23,591 nt of DNA from a candidate division WWE3 bacterium CSP1-7 (GCA_001443395.1 LDXK01000006.1:1-23591); one strand, 5' to 3'; shown: positions 1 through 23,591, counted from the first letter of the stretch. Translations and numbers: made by a program. Notes: a model not told the origin generated them from the sequence alone.

Positions 1-938
1 TGGAGAGAATCCAGGAAATCGATGGTGTCGGCGTTGGCGGCGCTGATCGACAGGGTCGATTCGTCGATCTCAGCGGTGGTGAGGCAGTTGGCGCAGGTGC
101 CGATCTCATTGCCGAGATCAAGGTAGTAGCTTCCCGGCTGCCCTTCCAGGGTATCGGCATCCCCGCCGGTGGCGAGCCCCCCGCCCCCTCCCGTTCCTGT
201 CACCCCGGTGGTGGTGCCGGTGACGGTCAGGTTTTCAACGTTCAAGGAGGTGACACTGATAGCGCCAGAATTGACGCTATTAAAGGAGGCATCGCCGGTG
301 GGGGAGATGAAATAATCATCGCCATTTCCAAAGAAAACCGTCCCTAAGAAGCGGGCGGTGTTGAGAATCGCATCTTCGGCAACGTTCAGAGATTTTGCGA
401 AGAGAACCCCGATATCGACCGGAAATTTTAAACCCAGTCGAAGCTCTCCGGTCTCTGTTATCTTGTACTCTAGTGCATCATTGACATCCACGATCGGGTT
501 GGCTGGTCCAGGAGAAAAAGCCCTCTCTAATCGCATTTTGGTCAGAAGTGGGATGGAGGAAAAGAAGATATATCCGGTGAGAAGGAAGGTTAGCGCAAGG
601 GCGAAATGAAAGTAAGGACGAGGACGGCGAGGACGGTAGTTTTCAATTTGGCGAATGGGAATTAACGGCGGTGGGGGCGGGGTTACCGGATCGGGATTAA
701 GAGGAAGCGGGGGAAGCGTTTCAACTTCGGTATTTAAGCGCTGGTCTGTTTCTTTACGGAAGGATTGAAGGATATTTTGGATGTCTTCAGGAGAGAAGCG
801 GCGGTCGCCGCCGGGAGTGCGGGCGGGGGTAAGCCGGCCCTCGTCTTCCCAACGGCGGAGAGTAGTGGGGGATACCCCTAAAATTCGAGAGGCTTCAGTA
901 ATCGAATAGAGACTGGATTCGGGCAGAGCGTTATTCAT
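1..938 (-). CDS. MerR/excisionase-like HTH + single TM + extracellular domain protein (partial, runs off left edge); paralog of 21409..>23591
   Basis: Not in the ORF track; translated by hand from ATG at 938-936: MNNALPESSLYSITEASRILGVSPTTLRRWEDEGRLTPARTPGGDRRFSPEDIQ (MerR-type HTH), then a Pro-rich linker, RPRRPRP, TM YFHFALALTFLLTGYIFF, and NPIVDVNDALEY...NTARFLGTVFFGNGDDYFISPTGD...TCANCLTTAEIDESTLSISAANADTIDFLDSL. The frame stays open to position 1. Confidence 0.9.
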   Translation of the reverse strand, partial: MNNALPESSLYSITEASRILGVSPTTLRRWEDEGRLTPARTPGGDRRFSPEDIQNILQSFRKETDQRLNTEVETLPPLPLNPDPVTPPPPPLIPIRQIENYRPRRPRPYFHFALALTFLLTGYIFFSSIPLLTKMRLERAFSPGPANPIVDVNDALEYKITETGELRLGLKFPVDIGVLFAKSLNVAEDAILNTARFLGTVFFGNGDDYFISPTGDASFNSVNSGAISVTSLNVENLTVTGTTTGVTGTGGGGGLATGGDADTLEGQPGSYYLDLGNEIGTCANCLTTAEIDESTLSISAANADTIDFLDSL

Positions 939-3207: not shown

Positions 3208-3894
3208 ATGTTGGTCGTCCTTTGGACGGTCCTGATGGTTATGTCCATTCTTGTGATCCACGAGGCCGGGCATTTCGTGATGGCCCTTCTGGTTAGACTG
3301 CCGGTGAGGTCTCTCCATCTCGGTATCCCCTTGGGGCCGCAGATCAGGACGAAGTTGGGAAAGTATCCGTTCACGATCTCACTCCTCCCTTTTGGAATGG
3401 CGGTGATGATCGACGAGGAAATGATGTGGAGAATACCACTGCCCAGGCGGGTGTTGGTTTTTCTCAGCGGTCCGTTTGCCAATCTCGCCGCGGCGATAAT
3501 CGTGTCTCTGGTCGTTTTTGGTCCCGAAGAGGGGATCAGGCGAGGTCTGGCAACGGTCGTCTTGTCGCTACTTGGTCCTCTGATGATCGCTACCGGACAA
3601 GTTCCGGTTAGCGACATTTCCGGACCGGTGGGGATCGTCTCGATCTCCGCGAGAGTAGTTTCGATCGCCCCGATCATTGGGACCGTGATGATGTTCACGA
3701 TCGTTTCGGCGGCCCTGGGGGCGATCAATCTTCTACCAATTCCCGGTTTGGATGGCGGTCAGATAATGATGCACAGCCTGGTCCGGCTGGGGATGCCGAA
3801 GAAATGGGAGCAGTGGTCCACCTACGGTTCTCTAACGCTGCTGATCGTGGGGATGATTTTGATCACCGTCAAGGATATCGTCAATCTGCTCTAA
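3208..3894 (+). CDS. Site-2 protease family (M50) membrane metalloprotease, no PDZ
   Basis: HEAGH, GPFAN and NLLPIPGLDGG motifs; hydrophobic; SD AAGGAGG upstream. Confidence 0.9.
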   Translation: MLVVLWTVLMVMSILVIHEAGHFVMALLVRLPVRSLHLGIPLGPQIRTKLGKYPFTISLLPFGMAVMIDEEMMWRIPLPRRVLVFLSGPFANLAAAIIVSLVVFGPEEGIRRGLATVVLSLLGPLMIATGQVPVSDISGPVGIVSISARVVSIAPIIGTVMMFTIVSAALGAINLLPIPGLDGGQIMMHSLVRLGMPKKWEQWSTYGSLTLLIVGMILITVKDIVNLL

Positions 3895-4414: not shown

Positions 4415-5098
4415 ATGACTTACCAGCTTGAAGATTATCTCTTTGATTTGGTCCGAACGCTTCTTAAGGTTAATTCTCTTCCGGGGAAGCTGATCAGCTT
4501 CGACACGTTGGATGGAGGGGGGAACTCAACCCAAGTTTCTCTTTTGACGGAGCATCTACGAAGCCGCGGAGTAGATGTTTTGGAAACAAAGGAACCGACC
4601 GAGGAACACATCGGCCGGAGGATCCGGGCAATCCTGCGCCGTGAGGAGCGTCTGAGCGATCTTCCTCTCCAACTTCTCTTCTCGGCGGATCGGGGCGATC
4701 ATCTGGGAAAGTTAATCCTTCCCGCCTTGAAGAATGGCAAGTGGGTGGTTTCAGCCCGCTATGCGTTAACCACCGTGGCTTGGGGGTCGGGGCAGAAGGT
4801 TCCTTCTTGGGTTCTCCTGGCGGCTAATGCCTATTATCCTTGGCCAAACCTCAACATTGTACTGATGCTTTCAATTGAGGAGTGTCTACGGCGGATCTTT
4901 GCACGTGCTAAGCGGGCAACCGACAAGCTTGAGCTTTTTGAAACACGTGCTTACATGGAGGCGAACGAAGCTTCTCTCAAGCAGATGGCGAAGAAACTTC
5001 CCAACGTGGTGCTGGTGGACGGGATGGGAACGGAAGAGGAAGTCTCCGCCCGCGTTTGGAATCTCGTAGAAGAACGGCTTCTGCCCTTGGCATTGTAA
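4415..5098 (+). CDS. tmk: Thymidylate kinase-like protein with degenerate P-loop
   Basis: Tmk layout (GKLISF..DG.G.STQ, TKEPT, LLFSADR..H, ILPAL..GKWVVS.RY), but the P-loop reads TLDGGGNST and DRY reads ARY. Confidence 0.8.
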   Translation: MTYQLEDYLFDLVRTLLKVNSLPGKLISFDTLDGGGNSTQVSLLTEHLRSRGVDVLETKEPTEEHIGRRIRAILRREERLSDLPLQLLFSADRGDHLGKLILPALKNGKWVVSARYALTTVAWGSGQKVPSWVLLAANAYYPWPNLNIVLMLSIEECLRRIFARAKRATDKLELFETRAYMEANEASLKQMAKKLPNVVLVDGMGTEEEVSARVWNLVEERLLPLAL

Positions 5099-5105
5099 GA
5101 CTTTT

Positions 5106-5137
5106 AACCCCGGATTCTTAGGAATACCGGGGTTTTT
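5106..5137 (+). terminator. Intrinsic terminator
   Basis: AACCCCGG-ATTC-ttag-GAAT-a-CCGGGGTT followed by TTT. Confidence 0.8.
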
Positions 5138-5159
5138 CTTGTTTGCTACACTTTTTCTG

Positions 5160-5960
5160 ATGTTAATCGATGGGAAGAAAATTTCCGCCGAAATCGGATC
5201 TCGCTTAGCGAAAGAAATTCGCCGGCGCAAGGCCAAACCACGCTTGGCGGTGGTTCTGGTCGGGAACAATCCCGCTTCCCGAATTTATGTCCGGAAAAAG
5301 GGAGAAGCGGCCTCACGGGTGGGAATCGGATTTACACTTTACGAACTCCTGAACCCTTCCCAAAAAGAGGTTCTGATCTTGATTGGGCGGCTGAATGCGG
5401 ACCGAGAGGTAAACGGGATCATCGTTCAGCTTCCTCTTTCCAAAAAACTCGATGAGGAGTTGATTATTAGTCACATTTCTCCAGATAAGGACGTGGATGG
5501 GTTGAACCCCTTTAGCGATTTTACACCAGCGACCGCCGGGGCGGTTTTGGAAGTCCTGCAACGTCAGAAAATAAAAATCGCCGGTGCGCGGTCGGTGGTG
5601 GTGGGCCGGGGAAAGGTAGCTGGAATGCCGGTTGCCCTGGCGCTTTTGGCGAACGATGCGACCGTTACGATCGCTCATTCCAAAACCAAAAATCTGGCGG
5701 AGCTAACAAAACAGGCGGATATCTTAGTGAGTTCGGTTGGTCGACCAATGATGATCAAACCGGCGATGGTCAAAAAAGGCGCTGCGGTGATTGATGTCGG
5801 GATTTCACGGATGGGCGGTAAGCTTCGAGGTGACGTTGATCCGGCGGTTGAGAGGAGAGCGCGTTTCCTTACTCCGGTTCCCGGCGGAATTGGTCCACTC
5901 ACGGTCGTGAAACTTTTGGAAAACGTCATCCGCGCTTCCCAACTCCAAAGCACACGCTAG
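5160..5960 (+). CDS. folD: Bifunctional methylene-THF dehydrogenase/cyclohydrolase
   Basis: MLIDGKK, ASRIYVRKK (YxxxK), GIIVQLPL, KDVDG, VIDVGI and TPVPGGIGPLTV. Start at ATG 5160. Confidence 0.95.
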   Translation: MLIDGKKISAEIGSRLAKEIRRRKAKPRLAVVLVGNNPASRIYVRKKGEAASRVGIGFTLYELLNPSQKEVLILIGRLNADREVNGIIVQLPLSKKLDEELIISHISPDKDVDGLNPFSDFTPATAGAVLEVLQRQKIKIAGARSVVVGRGKVAGMPVALALLANDATVTIAHSKTKNLAELTKQADILVSSVGRPMMIKPAMVKKGAAVIDVGISRMGGKLRGDVDPAVERRARFLTPVPGGIGPLTVVKLLENVIRASQLQSTR

Positions 5961-6077
5961 TCTATATTTTGAGATCGCTTTTTTACTACATTAGTATACT
6001 ATTCGAGATTTTTAGATTGACGGTATCGTATAATTGCTCGGCTTTATAATTCTTCCTAATTCCCAAGGAGGGAGGAG

Positions 6078-6662
6078 ATGGGACGCCGTCGCCGCACCGG
6101 GCTTTTTGTCTTTACGGGCTGTATGTTTGCCGGCAAAACCGACCGGCTGATCCACGAGCTGGAGGTGCGGGTCAACCACGCCCACCAGAAGGTGCAGGTT
6201 TTTTCGCCGGCGATTGATACCAGGACCGGATTGGGAAACATCATTGCCAAGGACGGCTACCGCCATTCCTTCCCGGCCCAAACGATTGCCAAAGCTGCCG
6301 ATATTCTGGATCTCGTCGCGGAAGATACCGACTTAGTGGCGGTCGACGAGGCCCAGTTCTTAGACGCCGGTTTGGTTGGCGTTTGCCGAAGGCTGATGCG
6401 CCATCACGAGGTCTTCGTGGCGGGATTAGACACCGATTTTCGGGGCGAACCGTTCGGGCCGATGCCGGAAATTCTCGCGATCGCTCTGCGGGTGGAGAAA
6501 CTGGCGGCGATCTGTGTCGTCTGCGGCGAGGACGCCCACTGCACCCAGCGACTGGTGAACGGTCTGCCGGCGCACTACAACGACCCGATCGTTTTGCCCG
6601 GCGGCACCGCGGAAGGATACGAGGCCCGTTGCCTGCTGCACCATCGGGTTGAGAGAGACTGA
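6078..6662 (+). CDS. tdk: Thymidine kinase
   Basis: GCMFAGKT, VDEAQF, GLDTDFRGEPF and CVVCG...YEARC..H; strong SD AGGAGG. Confidence 0.95.
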   Translation: MGRRRRTGLFVFTGCMFAGKTDRLIHELEVRVNHAHQKVQVFSPAIDTRTGLGNIIAKDGYRHSFPAQTIAKAADILDLVAEDTDLVAVDEAQFLDAGLVGVCRRLMRHHEVFVAGLDTDFRGEPFGPMPEILAIALRVEKLAAICVVCGEDAHCTQRLVNGLPAHYNDPIVLPGGTAEGYEARCLLHHRVERD

Positions 6663-6668
6663 CTCCAC

Positions 6669-6702
6669 ACCCCCAGACGAAAGTTTGGGGGTTTTTCTTT
6701 TT
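6669..6702 (+). terminator. Intrinsic terminator (GAAA loop)
   Basis: ACCCCCAGAC-GAAA-GTTTGGGGGT followed by a T tract. Confidence 0.8.
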
Positions 6703-6764
6703 AAGCGGCCGCCCCTTTTGTCTGATATAGTTTAGAAAACCGAAAGAAAGAGGAGGAGAGGGAG

Positions 6765-7550
6765 ATGCGCAGAGTCGAACCGAAAGTGTTCCTGGTCGGA
6801 GAGACCCGCGTTGTGGAAGAAGGTCTGCAGGCTTATCTCGAGCACATCGGTGTTCCGGATTGGGAAACGGATGCACCCTCCGATGCGGAAAAGGTGGTCG
6901 AGGTGATGGGCCGGCTCTGCTATCGGAGCTTCGAGCCGGGTTTGAATCTCAACGTCACCAAGGTCCGGGAGGGGAGCGCGGCCTACCTCGGGAACATTCT
7001 CAAAGTCGCCCACGGATCCGTGATCGAGCACCCGGTGATGAATTTCATCTTCGCCGATGTTTCGCGGGTTTTCACCCACGAACTGGTGCGGCACCGGGCC
7101 GGAGTGGCGATCTCCCAAGAGAGCCTGCGGTTCGTTCGCTTGGACAGCCTTGGCCAGTGGCTGCCGACGGTGATTCGCGAAGATGAAAAGGCGATGGAGA
7201 TTTTCGCCCAGACATTTGAGCATTTGGAACACCTCCAGCATGTACTCGCGGAGCACTTCCACCTCGACGATCCCGGAACACCTTTCCACCGCAAGAAGAT
7301 CGTCACCTCCGCGATGCGCCGAATCGCCCCGGATGGTTTGGCCACGACCATCGGCTGGTCCGCCAATCCCCGTACCATTCGTTGGGTGCTGGAGATGCGG
7401 ACCGATCCTTCCGCCGAGGAAGAGATCCGGCTGGTCTTCGGCAAGGTCGGCGAGATCCTAGTGGGGCGTTATCCCAACCTCTTCGGCGATTTCACGGTTG
7501 AGATGGTAGAGGGTTTGCCCTGCTACCGTCCGGCTCACCGCAAGGTTTAG
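6765..7550 (+). CDS. thyX: FAD-dependent thymidylate synthase
   Basis: GRLCYRS, HGSVIEH and SRVFTHELVRHRAGVAISQESLRF (RHRx7-8S motif), plus EEIR. Confidence 0.93.
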   Translation: MRRVEPKVFLVGETRVVEEGLQAYLEHIGVPDWETDAPSDAEKVVEVMGRLCYRSFEPGLNLNVTKVREGSAAYLGNILKVAHGSVIEHPVMNFIFADVSRVFTHELVRHRAGVAISQESLRFVRLDSLGQWLPTVIREDEKAMEIFAQTFEHLEHLQHVLAEHFHLDDPGTPFHRKKIVTSAMRRIAPDGLATTIGWSANPRTIRWVLEMRTDPSAEEEIRLVFGKVGEILVGRYPNLFGDFTVEMVEGLPCYRPAHRKV

Positions 7551-7551
7551 A

Positions 7552-8058
7552 ATGCGGATTTCAATCGTGATTGCGATGGACCGTAACCCGGTGAGGGGCC
7601 GGGCCAGAAAGCGACCGCGGATTAGGCCCCCTGCTGCTCAGAATTGGTTCCAAGAAACCATCGCCGATAAGCCGGTGGTAATGGGTCGTAAGACCCACGA
7701 AAGTCTGGGTGGATCCCTCCCCGGCCGGTTCAATGTGGTACTGACGCGGAACCGAAAATACGAGGCCGAGGATTGTCTGATGCTTCACTCCGTCAAGGAT
7801 GTTTTGGAGGTTATGGCGGAATTCGAAGATGTGATGGTGATCGGAGGCATGGAGATATTTCGGCAGTTTCTCCCCTATGCTTCCAAGGTTTACCTTATCG
7901 TTGTTGGTCGCGATCCGGCGGAGGACTTCTACTCTCTCCCCGAGGATTGGTCCCGCGATTGGCGGACCGTCGAGAGAAAAGAGGTTCACCGCGGAAACTA
8001 TACTCCTTACGATCTGACCTTTCTCGTTCTAGAACGGATTGATTTGGCTCATTCCTAG
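7552..8058 (+). CDS. folA: Dihydrofolate reductase-like protein with degenerate folate site
   Basis: KPVVMGRKTHESL, LPGRFNVVLTR and VIGG are retained. The N-terminal IG..N.LPW..P.D motif is replaced by RGRARKRPRIRPPAAQ. Starts 1 nt after thyX. Confidence 0.8.
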   Translation: MRISIVIAMDRNPVRGRARKRPRIRPPAAQNWFQETIADKPVVMGRKTHESLGGSLPGRFNVVLTRNRKYEAEDCLMLHSVKDVLEVMAEFEDVMVIGGMEIFRQFLPYASKVYLIVVGRDPAEDFYSLPEDWSRDWRTVERKEVHRGNYTPYDLTFLVLERIDLAHS

Positions 8059-10938: not shown

Positions 10939-11982
10939 ATGGAAATTTTGTCAATTCTTCGATTCTTGTTTTTGCTTTCGGTGCTTATTTTTGTGCACGA
11001 AGGGGGCCATTTTTTGATCGCCCGTTTGTTTGGAGTAGCGGTAGAGGAATTCGGATTCGGAATCCCGCCTCGCATTTGGGGAAAGAAGATTGGCGGTACG
11101 ATCTACTCGATCAATCTTCTCCCGATCGGGGGATTTGTCCGCCTTAAGGGCGAGGAGGGGGAAACTCTCGGTTTTGGAGGGGCGGGCTCTTTTGCTATCC
11201 AGAGCAAACTCAAACGGGCCGGGATCGTTGCGGCCGGCGCTTTAGGTAATTTTGTGCTGGCCTGGTTGGTCTTTTCTCTCCTGTGGGGATTGGGGAAGAA
11301 CGTTTCGGCCGAAAAGGTGCTGGTGAACAAGGTTTCGCTCGGTTCACCGGCGGCGGCCGCGGGAATTGCCGAGGGAGATTACATCCTTTCCTTCAACGGC
11401 GAGCGGGTGGAAACGGCCGAGGAACTGCTCACCCTAACCAAAGATAGCTTGGAGAAAACCGCTACTTTGGGGTTCGAGCGGGATAGTGAGGCGGTTTCGG
11501 TGAGCATCGTGCCGCGGGCTGATCCTCCGAAAGGGGAAGGGCCGCTGGGAGTAGGAATCACGACCGCTATCAAAGAAGAGAAAGTTCCTTTCTGGCAGAC
11601 ACCCTGGTTTGGTCTAAAGGAGACTTTCGAAACAACTATCATGATGATCAAGAGTTTTGGGGGAACAGTCACCTCTCTTTTCCGAGGAGAGGAAGTGATG
11701 GTCGGGGGTCCGGTGGCGATCTACGCCTTTTCCAAGGTGTATGCGGATGGTTTTAAACCTTTCCTTGATTTCATGGCGCTCCTCTCATTGAACCTGGTGG
11801 TGGTGAACCTTCTCCCGATTCCGGCGCTGGATGGGGGGAGAATTCTCTTCATCGGGATCGAAGCCCTACGGCGCAAGAAGCTTTCGCCGCGGACCGAAGC
11901 CGCGATCAATTCCGTGGGTTTGATAATCCTGATTGCGCTGATCGTAATCCTATCGGTTCGCGACATTCGAACTTTCTTTTAG
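10939..11982 (+). CDS. rseP: RIP metalloprotease RseP (M50, one PDZ)
   Basis: HEGGH, FGFGIPP, LPIGGFV, PDZ (GSPAAAAGIAEGDYIL) and NLLPIPALDGG; conserved position downstream of frr. Confidence 0.92.
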   Translation: MEILSILRFLFLLSVLIFVHEGGHFLIARLFGVAVEEFGFGIPPRIWGKKIGGTIYSINLLPIGGFVRLKGEEGETLGFGGAGSFAIQSKLKRAGIVAAGALGNFVLAWLVFSLLWGLGKNVSAEKVLVNKVSLGSPAAAAGIAEGDYILSFNGERVETAEELLTLTKDSLEKTATLGFERDSEAVSVSIVPRADPPKGEGPLGVGITTAIKEEKVPFWQTPWFGLKETFETTIMMIKSFGGTVTSLFRGEEVMVGGPVAIYAFSKVYADGFKPFLDFMALLSLNLVVVNLLPIPALDGGRILFIGIEALRRKKLSPRTEAAINSVGLIILIALIVILSVRDIRTFF

Positions 11983-12003: not shown

Positions 12004-15000
12004 ATGCCTGCCTGGCTGAAGAGAGTTCTTTCGGTTCTAACCTTGTCGATTCTTCTTTTTGCCCAAGTTCCTTGGGTTTACGCCGCTGATCTCTCCCTGA
12101 GCAACTCCGCGAATTACGATGTTCGTTACGACGGATCGGTTGTTGACGAAAGTCTTTCAGATTGGGGAAATACCCTGATTGGAGATGTAAATGGAGACGG
12201 AGTGGACGATTTGGTTATGGGGGCGAGTGCCTATGACGGGGTTGATTACTTCGGAGCCGTTTACGTTATTTTCGGCGGCCCCCAGTCCGGTAATAAGTCC
12301 CTCTCCACCGCCGGCAACTACAACATCCGTTACGAAGGAGCGGTGGACGAGGAGATCGGGACCTCGGCGGCGTTGGCAATCGGTGATGTAAACGGAGACG
12401 GAAAGGGGGATCTGATTATCGGTTCTCATCCGGCGAATAACAACGGGGTCGACTCCGGTTCCGCTTGGGTAATCTTCTCCACTCTGATTGACGATGTCGG
12501 GACCACTACCGGCAACAACAAATCCCTCCCCACCGCCGGCAACTACAATATCCGTTACGATGCTCCTGACTCGGCGGGATTCGGTTTGACTTTTGAAGCG
12601 GGGATTGCGGTGGGAGATGTGAATGGAGACGGGAAGAGAGACCTAGTGTTGACCGACCGGGATGCCGACAACAACGGAGCCAATTCCGGTTCGGTTTGGG
12701 TAATGTTCTCAACCTTGATCGACAACGTCGGTGCCACCACCGGTAATGATAAGGATTTGTCTGTTGCCGGTAACTACAACATCCGTTACGACGGCGGAGC
12801 CGTCAGTGATCTTCTCGCGATCGACGGGGCTATCACGATTGCCGATGTGAATGGAGACAATTTTAGCGATCTGATGCTAGGAACTCGGCTTGCTTCCAAT
12901 AATGATTTGTTCTCCGGTTCGGTCTGGGTAATGTTCTCGACCCTAATCGATGACGTTGGGGACACTACCGGCAATGACAAGCCTCTTGATGTTGGTACCA
13001 ATTACAACATCCGCTATGACGGCGGAGCGGCCGATGATCAGTTGACCGAAGGTGGTACTGGAAGACAAATTCTCGGAGAAGATGTGAACGGGGACGGAAA
13101 GGGAGATCTGGCGGTCGCCACGAATAGTGCCAGTTACAACGGAGCCAGTTCCGGTTCGGTCTGGGTAATGTTCTCGACCCTAATCGATGACGTTGGGGAC
13201 ACTACCGGCAATGACAAGCCTCTTGATGTTGGTACCAATTACAACATCCGCTACGACGGCGGAGCCGTGAGCGATTTTTTGTCTACCAGAGGATCATTAG
13301 CTATAGGTGACATCAACAACGATGGATTGGGCGACTTGGTAATCGGGGCGTCGGGCGCCAGCGGGGGTGGCGACACCCGCGGTTCGGTGTACAAGTTCCT
13401 TTCTACTCTGATCGACGACGTCGGGGCCACTACCGGCAACAACAAATCGCTGGGAGTTTCGGCGAACTACACCGACCGTTATGACGGAGCGGCCGATTTT
13501 GACGAGTTAACTGCGGATGGGGCTTTGGCAATCGGAGATGTTAACGCTGACGGTGGGAACGATCTTTTGATGGGTACATTCGATGCCGCTAACAACGGGG
13601 ACTTCTCGGGTTCGGTCTGGGTCGTTTACGGTCCGTCTCCTGCCCCTCCGCCTCCTGCCAACAGTGCTCCGAACGTGCCGTCTTCACTGGGAGGACATGT
13701 TTCCGGCTTTTACATTGCTGACAACACCCCGACTCTAACCTTTAACCTCTCCGATCCCGACACCGGTGATCAGGTTAGGTTTCGAATCCAGGTTGATAAC
13801 AACTCCGATTTCTCTTCTCCGGTGGTAGATTCCACTTCCTCTCTGGGTTCCCAGGGAGCCCGCTCCTTCACGGTCGGAACACCTCTCGCCGATGGCTCCT
13901 ATTATTGGAGAGTGCGGGCGACCGACGGGGACGGGGCGGCGAGCGCTTATGCCACCGCCAATGGAGGGAGTGTGGCGTTTCGGGTGGATACGACTCTCCC
14001 TTCTGCCCCGGGAACTCCCTTGGGAACAGTGGCGGAAGGAAGCCGAACTCCCACTTGGGTTTGGGACACGGCGATCGATACCGGGTCGGGTTTGCGGTCG
14101 GCCGACACCTACTTACTGCAATGGAGTATGGATTCGACTTTCACCACCGGCTTGTTCTCGATCTACGTTGATGCGGCGACATTTATCCACACCGTCGACC
14201 TGGAAGACGGCACCTGGTACCTGCGGGCGCAGGCCTTCGATGCGGTGGGGAACTCTTCCGAATTCTCAGCCACTGGAGAGGTTACGGTTTTAGGGGCCGA
14301 AGAAGAGCCGCTCCCGATTTCCGGGTGCATCGATCCGAACGCAAACAATTACAACCCAAGTGCTGAAGTAGATGATGGCAGTTGCCAGTACCCGACTGAG
14401 GAAGAGCAACCGCCCTTGATCCAGGTTATCGTCGGGGCGATCACCGGCCTTTATCAAAATATTCGGGCTCTAATAGATACGCTAGCGCAGGATGTTCAAC
14501 GCCTTCCCCTTCCGGTAAAACAGGGAGCAGATCTTGTTTCCAAAGGCGCCTTGCCGGTGATTGCGGTTACTTTATGGTTGCAGACGGGGATCTTATTTTT
14601 CGACCTGTCGTTTCTCCTAAATCCCCAACTTTTGGGGGCGGCATTCTTGGCACTTCTCGGGCTGCGCAAGAAAAAAGAACGGCCCTGGGGATTAATTTAC
14701 GATTCGATTACTAAACACCCGCTTAATTTTGGGATTGTCCGGCTCTTTTCCAAATCCGGGCAGGAAATCGGGACCGAAATCACCGATCAGTTCGGCGCCT
14801 TTTCCTTCCTCCCTGCTCCGGGGGCGTACGCGCTAGGCGCCCAACGCCCCGGATACCTCTTTCCCTCGAAATTTGTTAAGGGAGCAAGAGACGGCGAGTA
14901 CGAAAATATTTATCGGGGCGGGGAGTTTGCAGTAGGGCCGGAACAGGCTGCGGTGAGTTTGAGCGTTCCGTTGGATCCCCCGGATACGTCCACCTATGGG

Positions 15001-15477
15001 AGAGTTCTAACCATCTTCCGGAGAAGGGGATTCGGTATCAATGCGGTAATCCTCTTGATCGGTGTATCTTTATCGGCCCTCTCCTATCTCGCGATTCCGA
15101 CCGCGCTAAACCAAGTTTTAGTGATTATTTACATGGGTGGTCTGGCGGTTCTGCTTGCTTCTCGGACCGCAAGCGCTTCCCATTGGGGAGCAGTAAGAGA
15201 TGAGAGCGGACAGCCACAGGGAGGAATTGCCCTGGCTTTGGTCAACGCCAAGAGCGGGGCATTGGTGAAGCGGCGGGTAACCAACCCTGAGGGACGGTAT
15301 CAATTCTTGGCGCCGCGGGGCGAGTATCGGATTCTGCTTTCCTCCGTAGATTGGGAGCGTGTTCCCGATGGCTACCAAGGAGAGAACATCCGCCTCAAAA
15401 AAGACGGGGATTTAGTGAACCCTAGGATCACGGTTCGAAAGAAGTCCGAAACAGCGTTGAAGCGGCGAGAGATTTAA
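12004..15477 (+). CDS. Membrane-anchored surface protein with about 7 FG-GAP (integrin-alpha-like) repeats, Ig/FN3-like domains and C-terminal TM plus carboxypeptidase-regulatory-like domains
   Basis: Signal peptide; repeats of GDVNGDGxxDL....GSVWV.F; PSPAPPPP linker; DGSYYWRVRATD and DGTWYLRAQAFDAVGN; GCIDPNANNYNPSAEVDDGSC; TM helices; PWGLIYDSITK.P...TDQFGAFSF and TNPEGRYQF. Confidence 0.85.
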   Translation: MPAWLKRVLSVLTLSILLFAQVPWVYAADLSLSNSANYDVRYDGSVVDESLSDWGNTLIGDVNGDGVDDLVMGASAYDGVDYFGAVYVIFGGPQSGNKSLSTAGNYNIRYEGAVDEEIGTSAALAIGDVNGDGKGDLIIGSHPANNNGVDSGSAWVIFSTLIDDVGTTTGNNKSLPTAGNYNIRYDAPDSAGFGLTFEAGIAVGDVNGDGKRDLVLTDRDADNNGANSGSVWVMFSTLIDNVGATTGNDKDLSVAGNYNIRYDGGAVSDLLAIDGAITIADVNGDNFSDLMLGTRLASNNDLFSGSVWVMFSTLIDDVGDTTGNDKPLDVGTNYNIRYDGGAADDQLTEGGTGRQILGEDVNGDGKGDLAVATNSASYNGASSGSVWVMFSTLIDDVGDTTGNDKPLDVGTNYNIRYDGGAVSDFLSTRGSLAIGDINNDGLGDLVIGASGASGGGDTRGSVYKFLSTLIDDVGATTGNNKSLGVSANYTDRYDGAADFDELTADGALAIGDVNADGGNDLLMGTFDAANNGDFSGSVWVVYGPSPAPPPPANSAPNVPSSLGGHVSGFYIADNTPTLTFNLSDPDTGDQVRFRIQVDNNSDFSSPVVDSTSSLGSQGARSFTVGTPLADGSYYWRVRATDGDGAASAYATANGGSVAFRVDTTLPSAPGTPLGTVAEGSRTPTWVWDTAIDTGSGLRSADTYLLQWSMDSTFTTGLFSIYVDAATFIHTVDLEDGTWYLRAQAFDAVGNSSEFSATGEVTVLGAEEEPLPISGCIDPNANNYNPSAEVDDGSCQYPTEEEQPPLIQVIVGAITGLYQNIRALIDTLAQDVQRLPLPVKQGADLVSKGALPVIAVTLWLQTGILFFDLSFLLNPQLLGAAFLALLGLRKKKERPWGLIYDSITKHPLNFGIVRLFSKSGQEIGTEITDQFGAFSFLPAPGAYALGAQRPGYLFPSKFVKGARDGEYENIYRGGEFAVGPEQAAVSLSVPLDPPDTSTYGRVLTIFRRRGFGINAVILLIGVSLSALSYLAIPTALNQVLVIIYMGGLAVLLASRTASASHWGAVRDESGQPQGGIALALVNAKSGALVKRRVTNPEGRYQFLAPRGEYRILLSSVDWERVPDGYQGENIRLKKDGDLVNPRITVRKKSETALKRREI
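12913..13253 (+). repeat. Exact 104-bp direct repeat (12913-13016 = 13150-13253, offset 237) inside the FG-GAP gene
   Basis: Compared base by base; identical including third codon positions. Confidence 0.9.
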
Positions 15478-16987: not shown

Positions 16988-17397
16988 AAAAGAGAGAACA
17001 AGGCCAAGGCCTGGTCGAGTTTGCGCTGATTCTTCCCCTGCTGGTCATGTTGGTTCTGGGAATCTTTGAGACGGGGATGCTATTCAGTGATCTGGTCCAG
17101 GCAAACGCCAGCGCTCACAACGCGGTGCACGCCGCCGCCGTTCACATCGTGGACGGGTCGGGGAAGAGCTGCTATGACCGAGCGATGGAATCCCTGGGTG
17201 AGCCGGCCTTCCTCCTGGCGGAGGGGTCGATCTTCACGATCGAGCCCTGCTCGGACAACCCCTACTGGGTCGGTCCGATGGGCGCACAGGTGGTCGGTAC
17301 TTGGGAGTTTGTGATCGATCCCATCGATCCCATCTTCCACGACAACTTCGGTTTTCCGGTAACGGTTAACATGCAGTTCCGAGGAAACTTCCGCTAG
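16984..17397 (+). CDS. TadE family pseudopilin
   Basis: REQGQGLVEFALILPLLVMLVLGIFETG; GTG overlaps the upstream TGA (GTGA); SD AGGAGG. Confidence 0.88.
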   Translation: MKKREQGQGLVEFALILPLLVMLVLGIFETGMLFSDLVQANASAHNAVHAAAVHIVDGSGKSCYDRAMESLGEPAFLLAEGSIFTIEPCSDNPYWVGPMGAQVVGTWEFVIDPIDPIFHDNFGFPVTVNMQFRGNFR

Positions 17398-21101: not shown

Positions 21102-21122
21102 TGTTTTCTCCTCTCAAATAGG

Positions 21123-21154
21123 TTTTGGGGTGCGGTCTCGCCTAAGGCGAGTTG
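21123..21154 (-). promoter_or_regulatory. Conserved 32-nt leader hairpin motif, copy B
   Basis: 29/32 identical to 19422-19453. Confidence 0.7.
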
Positions 21155-21164
21155 TACTTGGGAA

Positions 21165-21193
21165 ATTATACCCGGTATAAGCCCAATAGTCAA
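21165..21193 (-). promoter_or_regulatory. sigma70 promoter of the M23 gene
   Basis: Minus strand reads TTGACT-N17-TATAAT. Confidence 0.75.
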
Positions 21194-21314
21194 AGTATAT
21201 AGGTTACATATTAATTCCACCTCTGCAAACCCGAAGGGTTTGACGGTCGACTATCGAAGATAGCTAGCGACGCCAGTCACGTCCTTCGGCGACCTAGCAA
21301 TCCCACTCAGTTTG

Positions 21315-21344
21315 TTGACATCTACCTCCGGAAACTGGTAATCT
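21315..21344 (+). promoter_or_regulatory. sigma70 promoter of the right HTH gene
   Basis: TTGACA-N18-TAATCT with a TGn extended -10. Confidence 0.65.
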
Positions 21345-21408
21345 TACACTCAGATTAAGTAAACCTTTAAATTGCCTTAGCTAAGGCAGATTAAGGTGAC
21401 CTGTCCAA

Positions 21409-23591
21409 ATGAATAGCAGCCTGCCCGGCTCAACTGATAATCTTTATCCTATCTCTGAAGCGGCCCGCATTTTGGGCATTCATCCTTCTACCCTTCGTCT
21501 CTGGGAAAGCCAGGGTTTAATTTCTCCGGATCGTACTCCGGGGGGCGACCGTCGTTATCGCCTTGCTGATCTGCAAGATCTCTTAAGCCGCAAGAACGAC
21601 GGTCGCTTGAAAGAGAACGGCGGTGGAGTTCCGCCGGAAGAGCGCTCTTACACTATTTCCGAAGCGGCCCAGTTTTTGGGGGTGCATCCTTCAACCCTGC
21701 GGTTGTGGGAAGAGCAAAGGTTGGTGACCCCGTCCCGCACTCCCGGTGGCGATCGGCGCTTTAGTTTTAGGCAACTGGAAGATATTTTGCGCCGCCAGTC
21801 CGATGGCCGGCGGAAAGCCGAGGAGATAAAAGTCGCCGAGCCGGCTCCAAGGTCCTACGAGAAGATTAAAGTTCGCCAGCTCGAACACTACCAACTTCCC
21901 TCGCGGACGAGGCTGGCAGCAACGCGGGTCTTTATTTTGGGATTGGCAATCCTGGTTTCTTGGTTTGTCTGGAACTCGGTTCCCGACCTTACCAGGGAAC
22001 GGGTCAAGCGCGCTTTCGTTCCTGATATCGACAACCCGATTGTCGATGTGAATGACGCGCTAGAGTATGTTGTAGAAAACGATCGAGTGGCGTGGTTAAA
22101 GTCCAAATTTCCGTTTCTAACCGATTTTCTCAAAGTATCCCAGGATGCCCTTTTCAACACCGCCCGTTTCTTAGGGACGGTTTTCTTTGGAAATGGCGAT
22201 GATTACTTTATCTCGCCCACCGGGGATGCTTCCTTTAATAGCGTTAATTCTGGCACTATCAGCGTCCCCTCCTTGAACGTTGAAAACCTGACCGTTACCG
22301 GCACCACCACCGGGGTGACAGGAACGGGAGGGGGCGGGGGGCTCGCCACCGGAGGAGATGCCGATACCCTGGAAGGGCAGCCGGGGAGTTATTATCTTGA
22401 TTTGGGGAACGAGATCGGCACCTGCGCCAACTGCCTCACCACCGCTGAGATTGACGAATCCACTCTTTCCATTTCCGCCGCCAACGCCGACACCATCGAT
22501 TTCCTGGATTCTCTCCAGTTCCTTCGATCGGACGTGGGCGACACCGGCACCGGGAATTACATCTTCGAGGACGACGTTACCCTGGGCCTCTCCTCCGCCG
22601 ATACTCTGGTGATCAACTCTGCGATCGGTTCCGATCTGATCCCGGACACCAACGTCGAATATGATCTTGGTTCGGCCGGGATCCGCTGGGGCGTCGGTTA
22701 CTTTGACGAGGTGGTGGTGAATACCCTCTCCGCCGGTGCTTCCGACATCTCCGGTACGATCTCCTCGGACTTCTCGATCAACACCGACAACGCCTCCGCC
22801 GATATCCAGGACGCCACCCTTACCTTCATCCGAGGGACCGAATCCCCCAATGCCGTCCTCCGCTGGGATTCCACCAACGACCGCTACCGGTTTGAAAGTT
22901 TTCCGCTTTATTTGGATAGCGATCTTCTAGTTGCCGGAGGCACGATCGATCTTTCCAATTCGGCCAAAGCTGTTTCCCTCGCCAACGCGGCCAACGCGCT
23001 TAACTTCGATTCCGATACCCTCGTCATCGACGCTTTCAGCAACTTCGTTGGGATTGGAACGTCCACTCCCGGCACTCCGCTGGACGTGAACGGGAACATC
23101 AACGTCCAAGCCGGGAACAATTACGAGATTGACGGTTGGGCGATCATCGGCTCCGACGGCCTCGGCGACAACAACTACCTCTTCTCGGCCCAAGACTCGC
23201 TCTCGGTCCGGAACTGGCAGGACACCGCCGACCTGCTCGTGATCGAAAACGGCGGGGACGTGACCGTCGGGGGGGATCTCACCGTCAGCGGGGGGGAGAT
23301 CTTCCTCACTCCGATTACCTCCTCCGGATCGACGACCGAAGGCACGGTCTACTACGACTCCGACAACGACAAGCTCTTCGTCTACGCCAACGGGGCCTTC
23401 CAGCGGCTGGCGACCGACATGACGAAATACACCGCCACCGACACCGCCCTCGCCAACGCCGGCTACGTTGAGATCGCCCACAACCAATCGACCAACGACC
23501 TCTCCCTCACCGCCTGGTACTACGACAGCCTCCTCGGGCAATGGCGGACGATCGAGAACTTCACCACCGTCATCAGCCAAGACCTTCAGAA
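21409..23591 (+). CDS. Large surface protein with two tandem MerR/excisionase-like HTHs, single TM and beta-rich extracellular region (partial, runs off right edge)
   Basis: Not in the ORF track; translated by hand from ATG 21409: YPISEAARILGIHPSTLRLWESQGLISPDRTPGGDRRY and YTISEAAQFLGVHPSTLRLWEEQRLVTPSRTPGGDRRF, TM VFILGLAILVSWFVW, then adhesin/fibre-like sequence (YDLGSAGIRW, VGIGTSTPGTPLDVNGNI, GDVTVGGDLTVSGG, GTVYYDSDNDKLFVY). No stop seen over about 727 codons. Confidence 0.9.
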   Translation, partial: MNSSLPGSTDNLYPISEAARILGIHPSTLRLWESQGLISPDRTPGGDRRYRLADLQDLLSRKNDGRLKENGGGVPPEERSYTISEAAQFLGVHPSTLRLWEEQRLVTPSRTPGGDRRFSFRQLEDILRRQSDGRRKAEEIKVAEPAPRSYEKIKVRQLEHYQLPSRTRLAATRVFILGLAILVSWFVWNSVPDLTRERVKRAFVPDIDNPIVDVNDALEYVVENDRVAWLKSKFPFLTDFLKVSQDALFNTARFLGTVFFGNGDDYFISPTGDASFNSVNSGTISVPSLNVENLTVTGTTTGVTGTGGGGGLATGGDADTLEGQPGSYYLDLGNEIGTCANCLTTAEIDESTLSISAANADTIDFLDSLQFLRSDVGDTGTGNYIFEDDVTLGLSSADTLVINSAIGSDLIPDTNVEYDLGSAGIRWGVGYFDEVVVNTLSAGASDISGTISSDFSINTDNASADIQDATLTFIRGTESPNAVLRWDSTNDRYRFESFPLYLDSDLLVAGGTIDLSNSAKAVSLANAANALNFDSDTLVIDAFSNFVGIGTSTPGTPLDVNGNINVQAGNNYEIDGWAIIGSDGLGDNNYLFSAQDSLSVRNWQDTADLLVIENGGDVTVGGDLTVSGGEIFLTPITSSGSTTEGTVYYDSDNDKLFVYANGAFQRLATDMTKYTATDTALANAGYVEIAHNQSTNDLSLTAWYYDSLLGQWRTIENFTTVISQDLQ
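22154..22517 (+). repeat. Inverted repeat partner of 1-364
   Basis: The reverse complement of 1-364 aligns without gaps; 29 mismatches by manual count (about 92% identity). Confidence 0.93.

Follow-up and report, generated by a model that had tools for sequence, protein, structure and literature searches.

What is a short DNA-binding domain doing at the base of a giant surface fibre? The question is raised by contig LDXK01000006.1 (C6) of candidate division WWE3 bacterium CSP1-7 (GCA_001443395.1), a stretch of 23,591 nucleotides that was analysed whole and is called the window here. Each end of the window lies inside a gene, gene a at the right and gene b at the left, that joins a MerR-type helix-turn-helix (HTH) region to one transmembrane (TM) helix and a large ectodomain. 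Sequence comparison and structure prediction strongly support the view that these proteins are membrane-anchored, phage-fibre-like surface fibres with one or more conserved BldC-like winged HTH domains (wHTHs) at their cytoplasmic end.

The window corresponds to an entire contig (23.6 kb) of a 572-kb genome that is assembled in 7 contigs and rated 80% complete. Gene a is an open reading frame of 727 aa by translation (21409..23589, plus strand) that stays open past the contig end, and gene b one of 312 aa (3..938, minus strand) that stays open past the contig start; both had been described in this form by the initial annotation. That annotation counted two paralogs, whereas the genome holds four, the other two (c and d) being located on contig C4. 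Paralog c (P0003) is complete with 3414 aa (C4:24474-34715, minus strand), while paralog d (P0004) carries two HTHs and is cut by the end of C4 after 960 aa. A common plan runs through all four: the HTH(s) are followed by a disordered Pro-rich linker, a single TM helix and a conserved membrane-proximal module, and the chain continues as an acidic Gly/Thr/Asp-rich fibre. Genes a and b are alike over 374 nt at 91.4% identity, a stretch that reaches the contig end (positions 1-374, residues 189-312 of b) and comprises the end of the module and the beginning of the fibre. It is this likeness that explains the assembly break at the contig ends. The two are distinct genes, and the assembly breaks inside both. 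Longer versions are found elsewhere: P0006 is a longer copy of gene a (1257 aa, 99% identical), P0013 a longer relative of gene b (1030 aa), and P0046 a full-length relative of gene a (2172 aa) that came from a word-based search for longer carriers of the HTH pair, a search of limited reach that gave 8 matches.

Genes of this kind invite the suspicion that a small MerR regulator gene and a fibre gene were fused by an assembly fault, a sequencing error or an overlooked stop codon, or that the HTH is an untranslated remnant. Both window genes end at contig edges, the region is repetitive between paralogs, and the relatives are mostly annotated as 'partial'. Such an artefact is nonetheless highly improbable. 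No stop interrupts the frame in any of the four paralogs, which include the complete 3414-aa copy. A family query made of residues 141-300 (TM helix and module, with the HTH excluded) was run against 1.84 billion cluster representatives and retrieved 29 clusters at E<=1e-3. Five weak ones (P0038, P0042-P0045) matched only the fibre start and were dropped; in the 24 that were scanned, MerR_1 is present in 22 and MerR in 21, so that the same domain order recurs in 22 of 24 representatives from independent assemblies. It is also kept as an HTH-TM-tail order by 16 long frames of other lineages. Furthermore, the HTHs are under strong in-frame purifying selection. Between gene a and its same-genus ortholog, dN/dS is 0.02 for HTH1 and 0.05 for HTH2 (dS 0.7-0.9) and 0.16 for the ectodomain module; for the HTH of gene b, it is 0.14 at a dS of 0.2. 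Finally, unitigs from three public metagenome runs, one of which is possibly the source sample, tile positions 21117-22197 without a mismatch and with no indels listed. One unitig covers HTH2, linker, TM helix and module, and the HTH2-TM junction is spanned by unitigs of the three runs. The HTH-TM-fibre fusion is real and under constraint.

How widely the fusion occurs depends on which part of it is followed. The family defined by the module is narrow: of 9 further genomes from the same taxonomic family 7 carry it, as against none of 31 genomes that represent 16 other families of the class. Its named records are metagenome-assembled genomes of a 'Patescibacteria group bacterium' or an 'uncultured Candidatus Saccharibacteria bacterium'. 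In NCBI these relatives go under 'MerR family transcriptional regulator, partial' or under 'hypothetical protein', the former being the filing that had been anticipated for such fusions. The HTH-TM-fibre plan itself is wide across Patescibacteria, with differing ectodomains. MerR_1 is matched in 133 of 300 other Patescibacteria genomes (134 of 301 with the own genome included), and the 18 longest MerR-bearing frames (426-3129 aa) were taken among the 150 matches listed, to which 86 further matches come. Sixteen of these 18 combine 1-3 HTHs with a single hydrophobic peak at residue 108-310 and a long tail, which is mostly Gly/Thr/Ser/Asp-rich, and they come from 15 genomes of 7 families. The survey of candidate phyla radiation genomes that the initial annotation had called for thus recovers the architecture in no fewer than 15 of the 300 Patescibacteria genomes sampled, a minimum figure given that such genes are truncated by contig breaks. 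The ectodomains include a Peptidase_S74 terminus (E=2.8e-14, 53.6 bits) in an HTH-TM protein from the same class but another family (L025), and an endosialidase domain (End_tail_spike, E=4.8e-23) with LVIVD repeats in one further HTH-TM frame. The number of HTH copies per chain in HTH-TM proteins is 1, 2, 3 or 4, and a partial database protein has four tandem HTHs ahead of its TM helix. The remaining two of the 18 frames are cytoplasmic fusions that bear the short MerR-type HTH and no TM helix: in one it is fused to a C5 cytosine DNA methylase (L039, G010:C3; E=6e-78), in the other to a PEP-utilizers mobile domain (L035, G066:C14; E=5e-23).

What sort of HTH is it? A single short HTH had been assigned to each edge gene. 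This holds for gene b, whereas gene a carries two MerR-type winged HTHs in tandem. In Pfam, gene a matches MerR (E=2.8e-28), MerR_1 (4.5e-24) and HTH_17 (4.9e-15), each in two stretches (residues 13-58 and 79-131), and gene b matches MerR, MerR_1 and HTH_17 once each at about 1e-13. Scores for genes a and b are 97.9 and 48.1 bits with PF00376 (cut-off 28.2) and 84.8 and 50.9 bits with PF13411 (cut-off 21.6), which places an N-terminal MerR-type wHTH in both. In paralogs a, b and d, MerR_1 is matched no further than profile position 46 of 69, and the classical coiled coil and effector domain are therefore absent, as the initial annotation had supposed; paralog c has a divergent, longer MerR_1 type (profile positions 3-67 of 69). 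For the edge genes, all effector-specific NCBIfam models score far under their cut-offs, and in the AlphaFold2 (AF2) model of gene a each HTH is followed by a short helix and a disordered linker, with no long coiled coil.

The closest kin within this superfamily had been sought among excisionase, BldC and IS607-type domains. The excisionase model excise (TIGR01764) is passed at 32.7 and 30.0 bits over a cut-off of 28.8. The BldC family model NF033787 gives 56.5 bits for gene a (in two stretches) and 41.7 for gene b, both under its cut-off of 77, and the HspR and IS607 models of NCBIfam are matched under theirs. By fold, BldC is the closest. The solved structures nearest in HTH sequence are a CarH-like protein, BldC, CarH and GlnR/TnrA; with family profiles, BldC is the top match in the PDB (E=3e-10). 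It is also the best Foldseek match of the AF2 model (6ama; target-normalised TM-score 0.73-0.75, root mean square deviation 1.7-2.3 Å, 34-35% identity), with an E-value of only 1.1e-3 because the query is long. RacA (5i44) is another structural match, at a target-normalised TM-score of 0.67. A search of the ESM Atlas with residues 1-330 gave no usable feature match and only weak MerR-type structural rows. Equivalents of BldC Thr27, Trp31, Gly44-Gly45, Arg47, Arg48 and Tyr49 are kept in the sequence alignment, and the MerR-type T-L-R-x-W-E recognition helix is retained. Among themselves, the paralog HTHs (a1, a2, b, d1, d2) are 45-64% identical, and 31-39% identical to that of c, while each paralog's HTH is 92-98% identical between species at a dS of 0.2-0.9.

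BldC (6ama, 6amk), the founding member of its family from Streptomyces, is a 68-residue MerR-like wHTH without a coiled coil that forms head-to-tail multimers on 9-bp direct repeats, according to the accessible part of its structural description (PMC5859096). The domains described here share with it a short wHTH, a MerR-type recognition helix and a basic G-G-x-R-R-Y wing, and both are devoid of a coiled-coil dimerisation helix and an effector domain. They differ in that BldC is a free cytoplasmic protein, whereas here the HTH is in tandem (gene a) and covalently continuous with a TM helix and an enormous ectodomain.

Between HTH and membrane lies a linker of 35-55 residues that contains a juxtamembrane motif present in both edge genes ([VI]R[QST][LIM]E..[YF], followed by RPRP-type basic residues). 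This motif had been recognised from the start, together with the CxxC of both ectodomains and the single TM helix; hydropathy gives one strong peak per paralog protein, and the AF2 model of gene a a helix at residues 167-190. Behind the TM helix, a basic amphipathic helix has L194 and R198 invariant and R201 and F203 nearly so among 30 sequences. The initial annotation had relied on the positive-inside rule for a cytoplasmic HTH. That argument fails locally: within 15 residues of the TM helix, K+R are about as frequent on one side as on the other (4/4, 4/3, 1/3 and 4/4), and the rule therefore leaves the topology unfixed. The cytoplasmic placement itself is retained on other grounds. In eight proteins, the N side has a net charge of +1 to +15 and no Cys, whereas the ectodomain has a net charge of -15 to -154, 3-5% K+R and even Cys counts (8 of 8). 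It is this asymmetry of charge and Cys over whole domains, together with the lack of a signal peptide before the folded HTH, that points to an N-in/C-out orientation. A type-II (N-in/C-out) single-pass arrangement thus appears to be the only workable one and is strongly supported by these sequence features.

A conserved cytoplasmic tail need not bind DNA. It could instead be a folded stopper on the cytoplasmic side, a docking or protein-protein module, or a handle for the secretion or assembly of long fibres. The Xre-type HTH of RodZ, for instance, binds MreB. Consistent with such a role, the residue equivalent to BldC His46 is acidic in a and b, the conserved juxtamembrane motif and RPRP stretch resemble a docking site, and across the phylum the HTH-TM base recurs, like an anchoring cassette, beneath ectodomains that are unrelated to one another. 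Yet the parts of the domain that make a MerR-type DNA binder are kept, namely the wing Arg-Arg-Tyr/Phe, the Gly-Gly turn, the Trp and the T-L-R signature of the recognition helix. The HTH dN/dS of 0.02-0.05, the net basic N side and the tandem duplication of whole wHTH units, which is typical of DNA-repeat binders, likewise speak for DNA, and a tail without a DNA role is considered unlikely.

On the other side of the membrane, the module of about a hundred residues next to the TM helix is the most conserved extracellular part. It opens with P-I-V-D-V-N-D, and P210, D213, N215, D216, Y220, P235, R253, G256 and F260 are invariant among 30 sequences. As a monomer, the ectodomain is modelled by AF2 at a predicted local distance difference test (pLDDT) value below 50, unusable for a fold search. 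As a homotrimer, residues 165-460 reach an ipSAE interface score of 0.82 in 3 of 3 runs, against 0.00 for the best of 3 controls. The model has an intertwined interface at residues 247-445 and a pLDDT of 73-82, and the runs agree in at least 82% of contacts. The ipSAE mark is reached by 20 of 30 proteins solved as one-chain pairs and by 1 of 23 solved as single chains, a calibration that holds only roughly for the trimer run, which used our own alignment and three copies. As solved trimeric phage fibres exist, the pass may also reflect likeness to them or memory of the model. The ectodomain thus probably forms an intertwined homotrimer, the state predicted for it when modelled in three copies.

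The far end of the fibre is visible only in complete relatives. P0028 (1864 aa), P0030 (1909 aa) and P0024 (1610 aa) have a C-terminal domain of the type found in P0003. With the Peptidase_G2 intramolecular chaperone model, the P0003 C-terminus scores 20.8 bits and P0030 24.2, just under the cut-off of 25, and on this ground the conserved C-terminal domain of complete copies appears to resemble an intramolecular chaperone. A search for Peptidase_S74 and LamG domains had been proposed. Pfam finds no Peptidase_S74 domain in the module-defined family, the one S74 match being in the analogous protein of another lineage mentioned above, and Laminin_G_3 is carried by P0006 (E=7e-20). P0003 is further composed of three units of about 770 aa with the same opening motif at residues 797, 1556 and 2336. 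Each contains very Gly-rich stretches without a Pfam match; a self-BLAST of P0003 gives no off-diagonal rows, and the three units rest on the repeated motif. AF2 modelling of the C-terminal 414 aa (4 sequences) reaches a pLDDT of 43, with only the last beta-sandwich confident.

A profile built from the P0003 C-terminus with P0028, P0030 and P0024 matches Bdellovibrio Bd2133 (8ond) at E=2.2e-15, through a segment that lies outside the window part of genes a and b. As single sequences in phmmer, P0003 and P0004 have no PDB match for the ectodomain and do not reach Bd2133, and the same is true of the C-terminus. Bd2133 belongs, with Bd3182 and others, to the mosaic adhesive trimer (MAT) fibres of Bdellovibrio bacteriovorus; MATs are displayed on the predator surface and bind prey glycans, as stated in the available text of PMC10769870. 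The resemblance extends beyond this kinship in the beta-helix segment. Both groups are multi-copy families of long, intertwined trimeric fibres of phage-tail-fibre type, in the paralogs by prediction, and both belong to bacteria that live on bacteria. Both also combine a conserved N-proximal domain near the cell with variable tips and an S74-type or alternative C-terminal domain. In contrast, MATs start with a signal peptide and a beta-rich N-domain of about 130 aa, whereas cytoplasmic wHTH(s) and a TM anchor are found here, in a monoderm member of the Patescibacteria, and the complete paralog has 3414 aa with its three internal units. The module and the MAT N-domain are set apart by the range of the module search (29 clusters) rather than by direct comparison.

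With phage tail fibres and tailspikes, the proteins share the predicted trimeric fibre and a C-terminal domain close to the Peptidase_G2 chaperone model; PHROG tail-fibre profiles are matched weakly, and analogous Patescibacteria proteins have true S74 and endosialidase domains. They differ in being encoded by a cellular chromosomal gene amid housekeeping genes, with a membrane anchor bearing HTHs at the N-terminus in place of a baseplate-docking domain. Taken together, a long acidic fibre akin to phage tail fibres and Bdellovibrio MAT fibres is strongly supported. The paralogs fall outside the classical MerR definition, the BldC model cut-off and the MAT definition.

What, then, would a wHTH achieve at the cytoplasmic end of such a fibre? 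Our tentatively favoured answer, which is possible and no firmer than that, is a transmembrane one-component regulator of the ToxR/CadC kind that reports the state of the fibre; this function is inferred. Transmembrane transcription regulators (TTRs) are common, 56% of them single-pass, and employ more than 100 DNA-binding domain types, as given in the available part of PMC10269533. A DNA-binding domain and a TM helix lie in one polypeptide in the paralogs, which agrees with the working definition of TTRs, and ToxR, TcpP, CadC, BcrR and HigX similarly have a cytoplasmic DNA-binding domain, mostly one TM helix and an extracytoplasmic part. Known examples, however, combine OmpR-type, Xre-type or similar domains with small sensor domains in the periplasm; no BldC-like tandem wHTH or giant trimeric fibre was found among known TTRs. 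In the main text of PMC10269533, the words MerR and Patescibacteria are absent save for a reference surname, its supplementary tables being outside this check. More generally, full-text searches of the literature gave no account, for Patescibacteria or elsewhere, of a MerR/BldC-type HTH joined to a fibre ectodomain, the supplementary tables of PMC10269533, PMC10769870 and PMC10633639 not being covered. The accessible parts of PMC13278184 concern a different pilus system, those of PMC12857230 and PMC13384398 have no bearing on HTH-TM-fibre proteins, and in that of PMC10633639 the words DNA-binding, transcription and transmembrane are absent.

In such a regulator, trimerisation of the fibre would gather 3-6 wHTHs under the membrane on flexible linkers. 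The gathered domains could then bind DNA cooperatively, in the manner of BldC head-to-tail on direct repeats; the multimerisation of BldC would suit tandem, trimer-clustered HTH copies. The input would be the state of the fibre, such as assembly, host contact, pulling force or shedding. As output, sites on the chromosome would be occupied, whether by the membrane-bound protein or by a tail released through intramembrane proteolysis. The HTHs of the paralogs differ from one another yet are conserved between species, which fits distinct specific targets better than generic DNA binding.

A number of observations weigh against a regulator. The equivalent of BldC His46 is Asp in a and b and Gln in d, and that of Arg30 is Leu in both gene a HTHs and Arg in b and d. 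DNA binding is lost in BldC H46E and R30A according to the sections available of PMC5859096, and minor-groove reading of the BldC type is therefore not assured. The N-in/C-out topology, with its evenly charged TM flanks, is itself inferred. No ligand-binding sensor domain is present, and passing a signal along a fibre of more than 1000 residues and one TM helix is a difficulty. The high and variable valency, from 3 to 12 HTHs per trimer, looks as architectural as regulatory. Nor do the upstream regions of the four paralogs reveal a shared operator: they have no common word of 9 nt or longer and one 8-mer in three of them. A TTGACA-N18-TAAnnT layout upstream of the four genes is discernible by eye only and fails a consensus promoter scan, the TTGACA-N18-TAATCT upstream of gene a included. 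Among public runs, no RNA run covering the stretch is listed.

Some of these same features suit a different role, in which the clustered wHTHs, binding DNA avidly but regulating little, tether the nucleoid to the envelope. The chromosome, or particular sites of it, would be held at the fibre base, for instance at the host-attaching pole, or the nucleoid would act as ballast against pull-out of the single-helix anchor. RacA and Xis provide precedents, being architectural, non-transcriptional MerR-like wHTH proteins in the accessible text of PMC5859096. RacA of Bacillus subtilis (5i41, 5i44), which also appears among the structural matches, likewise fastens DNA to the cell envelope through a MerR-like wHTH, in sporulating cells. 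The membrane link is covalent in the paralogs, whereas RacA is a soluble, coiled-coil dimer that reaches the membrane via a partner protein. A tether would agree with 1-4 HTHs per chain times three chains, with the reach of a flexible 35-55-residue linker and with the failure to find an operator upstream of the four genes. It would further agree with the presence of four paralogs in a 0.57-Mb genome without a free MerR/HTH_17 protein. In a genome scan, all 6 MerR_1 matches and all 5 HTH_17 matches fall inside the four paralogs, and no free-standing protein of either type occurs in the available 80% of the genome. A generic tether fits less well, on the other hand, with paralog HTHs that differ and are each kept at 92-98% between species, and no GC-rich or other repeated family of candidate DNA sites was found. 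It is held to be somewhat doubtful, ranking behind the regulator, ahead of the tail without a DNA role and well ahead of the artefact.

A bolder form of the regulator is a Notch-like sensor of contact or force. Engagement of a host cell by the phage-fibre-derived adhesin, followed by load or shedding at the module, would expose a stub to an RseP-type site-2 protease; the freed tandem BldC-like wHTH tail would bind direct repeats, and the epibiont would switch from free swarmer to attached feeding. The HTH-TM base would then be a cassette, spread across the phylum, through which any surface fibre would report its contacts to transcription. Release by proteolysis is an attractive variant because an RseP-type protease is encoded in the genome and the most conserved extracellular part adjoins the membrane. 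The presence of an RseP-like gene proves nothing for tail release, since the gene is common, and the full scheme is speculative and improbable. The window holds two Peptidase_M50 genes, at 10939-11982 and 3208-3894 (both plus strand), the first of which has a PDZ domain, is RseP-like and would be the candidate for releasing the tail.

Direct repeats of the kind that BldC-like wHTHs bind, head-to-tail at 9 bp, do exist in the genome. A genome-wide run of Tandem Repeats Finder for short-period arrays returned mostly noise and three loci with 9-bp periodic arrays, and arrays with a TTACT-type core number 3 at period 9 against 0-1 at periods 7, 8, 10, 11 and 12. They are paired arrays of 3-5 direct repeats at C3:56404-56506, at C5:14573-14602 with 15020-15052 and at C1:191132-191167 with 191363-191397, inverted in two loci around a spacer of about 30 bp. 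The C3 array adjoins a 302-aa frame that is integrase-like by eye, and the C5 array a 131-codon gene upstream of rplL. No 9-bp array lies near the four genes, and no link between the arrays and these genes emerged.

Positions of the parts of genes a and b within the window, with the evidence or remark for each
Feature	Position	Strand	Evidence or remark
Gene a, 5' part	21409..23591	+	727 codons; 2x wHTH, linker, TM, module, fibre
Winged HTH 1 of gene a, residues ~13-58	21445..21582	+	Pfam MerR_1/MerR/HTH_17; AF2 pLDDT 76-83; dN/dS 0.02
Winged HTH 2 of gene a, residues ~81-126	21649..21786	+	Pfam second stretch; AF2 pLDDT 75-80; dN/dS 0.05
Disordered cytoplasmic linker of gene a, residues 133-166	21805..21906	+	AF2 pLDDT <50
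Juxtamembrane motif VRQLEHY of gene a	21871-21891	+	Conserved in paralogs a, b, d and relatives
Single TM helix (signal-anchor) of gene a, residues 167-190	21907..21978	+	Kyte-Doolittle 2.13 at 169-187; AF2 helix, pLDDT 71-74
Basic amphipathic helix after TM (LT.ER.KRAF type) of gene a, residues 193-203	21985..22017	+	AF2 helix
Membrane-proximal module of gene a, residues 205-300	22021..22308	+	Most conserved extracellular part
Gly-rich hinge and acidic Gly/Thr/Asp-rich fibre of gene a	22309..23589	+	Composition; repeated D-A-D-T-L-x-G ... CxxC units
CxxC of gene a	22423-22434	+	Inside repeated unit
Gene b, 5' part	3..938	-	312 codons; 1x wHTH, Pro-rich linker, TM, module, fibre start
Winged HTH of gene b	771..908	-	Pfam MerR_1 1.7e-13; dN/dS 0.14
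Juxtamembrane motif IRQIENY of gene b	636..656	-	Sequence comparison
TM helix of gene b, residues 114-132	543..599	-	Hydropathy peak 1.88
Membrane-proximal module of gene b	204..491	-	Alignments
Fibre start of gene b	3..203	-	Sequence; CxxC at 84-95

The remainder of the contig consists largely of housekeeping genes, among them topA, rpsB, tsf, frr, a thymidylate/folate cluster and the two M50 proteases, and these neighbours suggest no operon partner for the edge genes. The thymidylate/folate cluster is compact (4415-8058, plus strand) and holds tmk, folD, tdk, thyX and dhfr. Other envelope-type genes of C6 encode an FG-GAP surface protein, a TadE-like protein and an M23 peptidase. The first of these (12004-15477, plus strand) is a 1157-aa surface protein with five FG-GAP repeats, Ig-like domains, CarboxypepD_reg and, by eye, hydrophobic stretches near the C-terminus; it is unrelated to the HTH-TM fibres and is followed by the TadE-like gene (~17000-17397). 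The M23 peptidase gene is divergent from gene a. The 307-bp gap between them contains a good minus-strand promoter-like site at 21193-21165 (TTGACT-17-TATAAT, 11/12), which lies upstream of the M23 peptidase gene and is the only site that the promoter scan passes, and a plus-strand hairpin at 21137-21151. Upstream of gene d on C4 (C4:43337-44223), a tRNA-like sequence, recognised by eye, directly adjoins the gene, with an open frame before it.

Genes of this type break assemblies, and under the label 'MerR family transcriptional regulator, partial' neither their size nor their nature is apparent. Phage tail-fibre modules would here have been domesticated for a second time by a bacterium living on bacteria, and the fusion would extend transmembrane one-component regulators to an outer part of quite different scale. 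Its function is directly testable, as Saccharibacteria are now transformable. Ultrasmall epibiotic Patescibacteria have very few regulators, and in this 0.57-Mb genome the only MerR/HTH_17-type domains sit on the cytoplasmic end of four fibres of host-contact type. How such epibionts recognise a host cell and switch between the free and the attached state is completely unknown, as described in the accessible part of PMC11665869. If the tail binds DNA, these proteins would provide the shortest possible path from surface contact to chromosome and a concrete candidate for host sensing.

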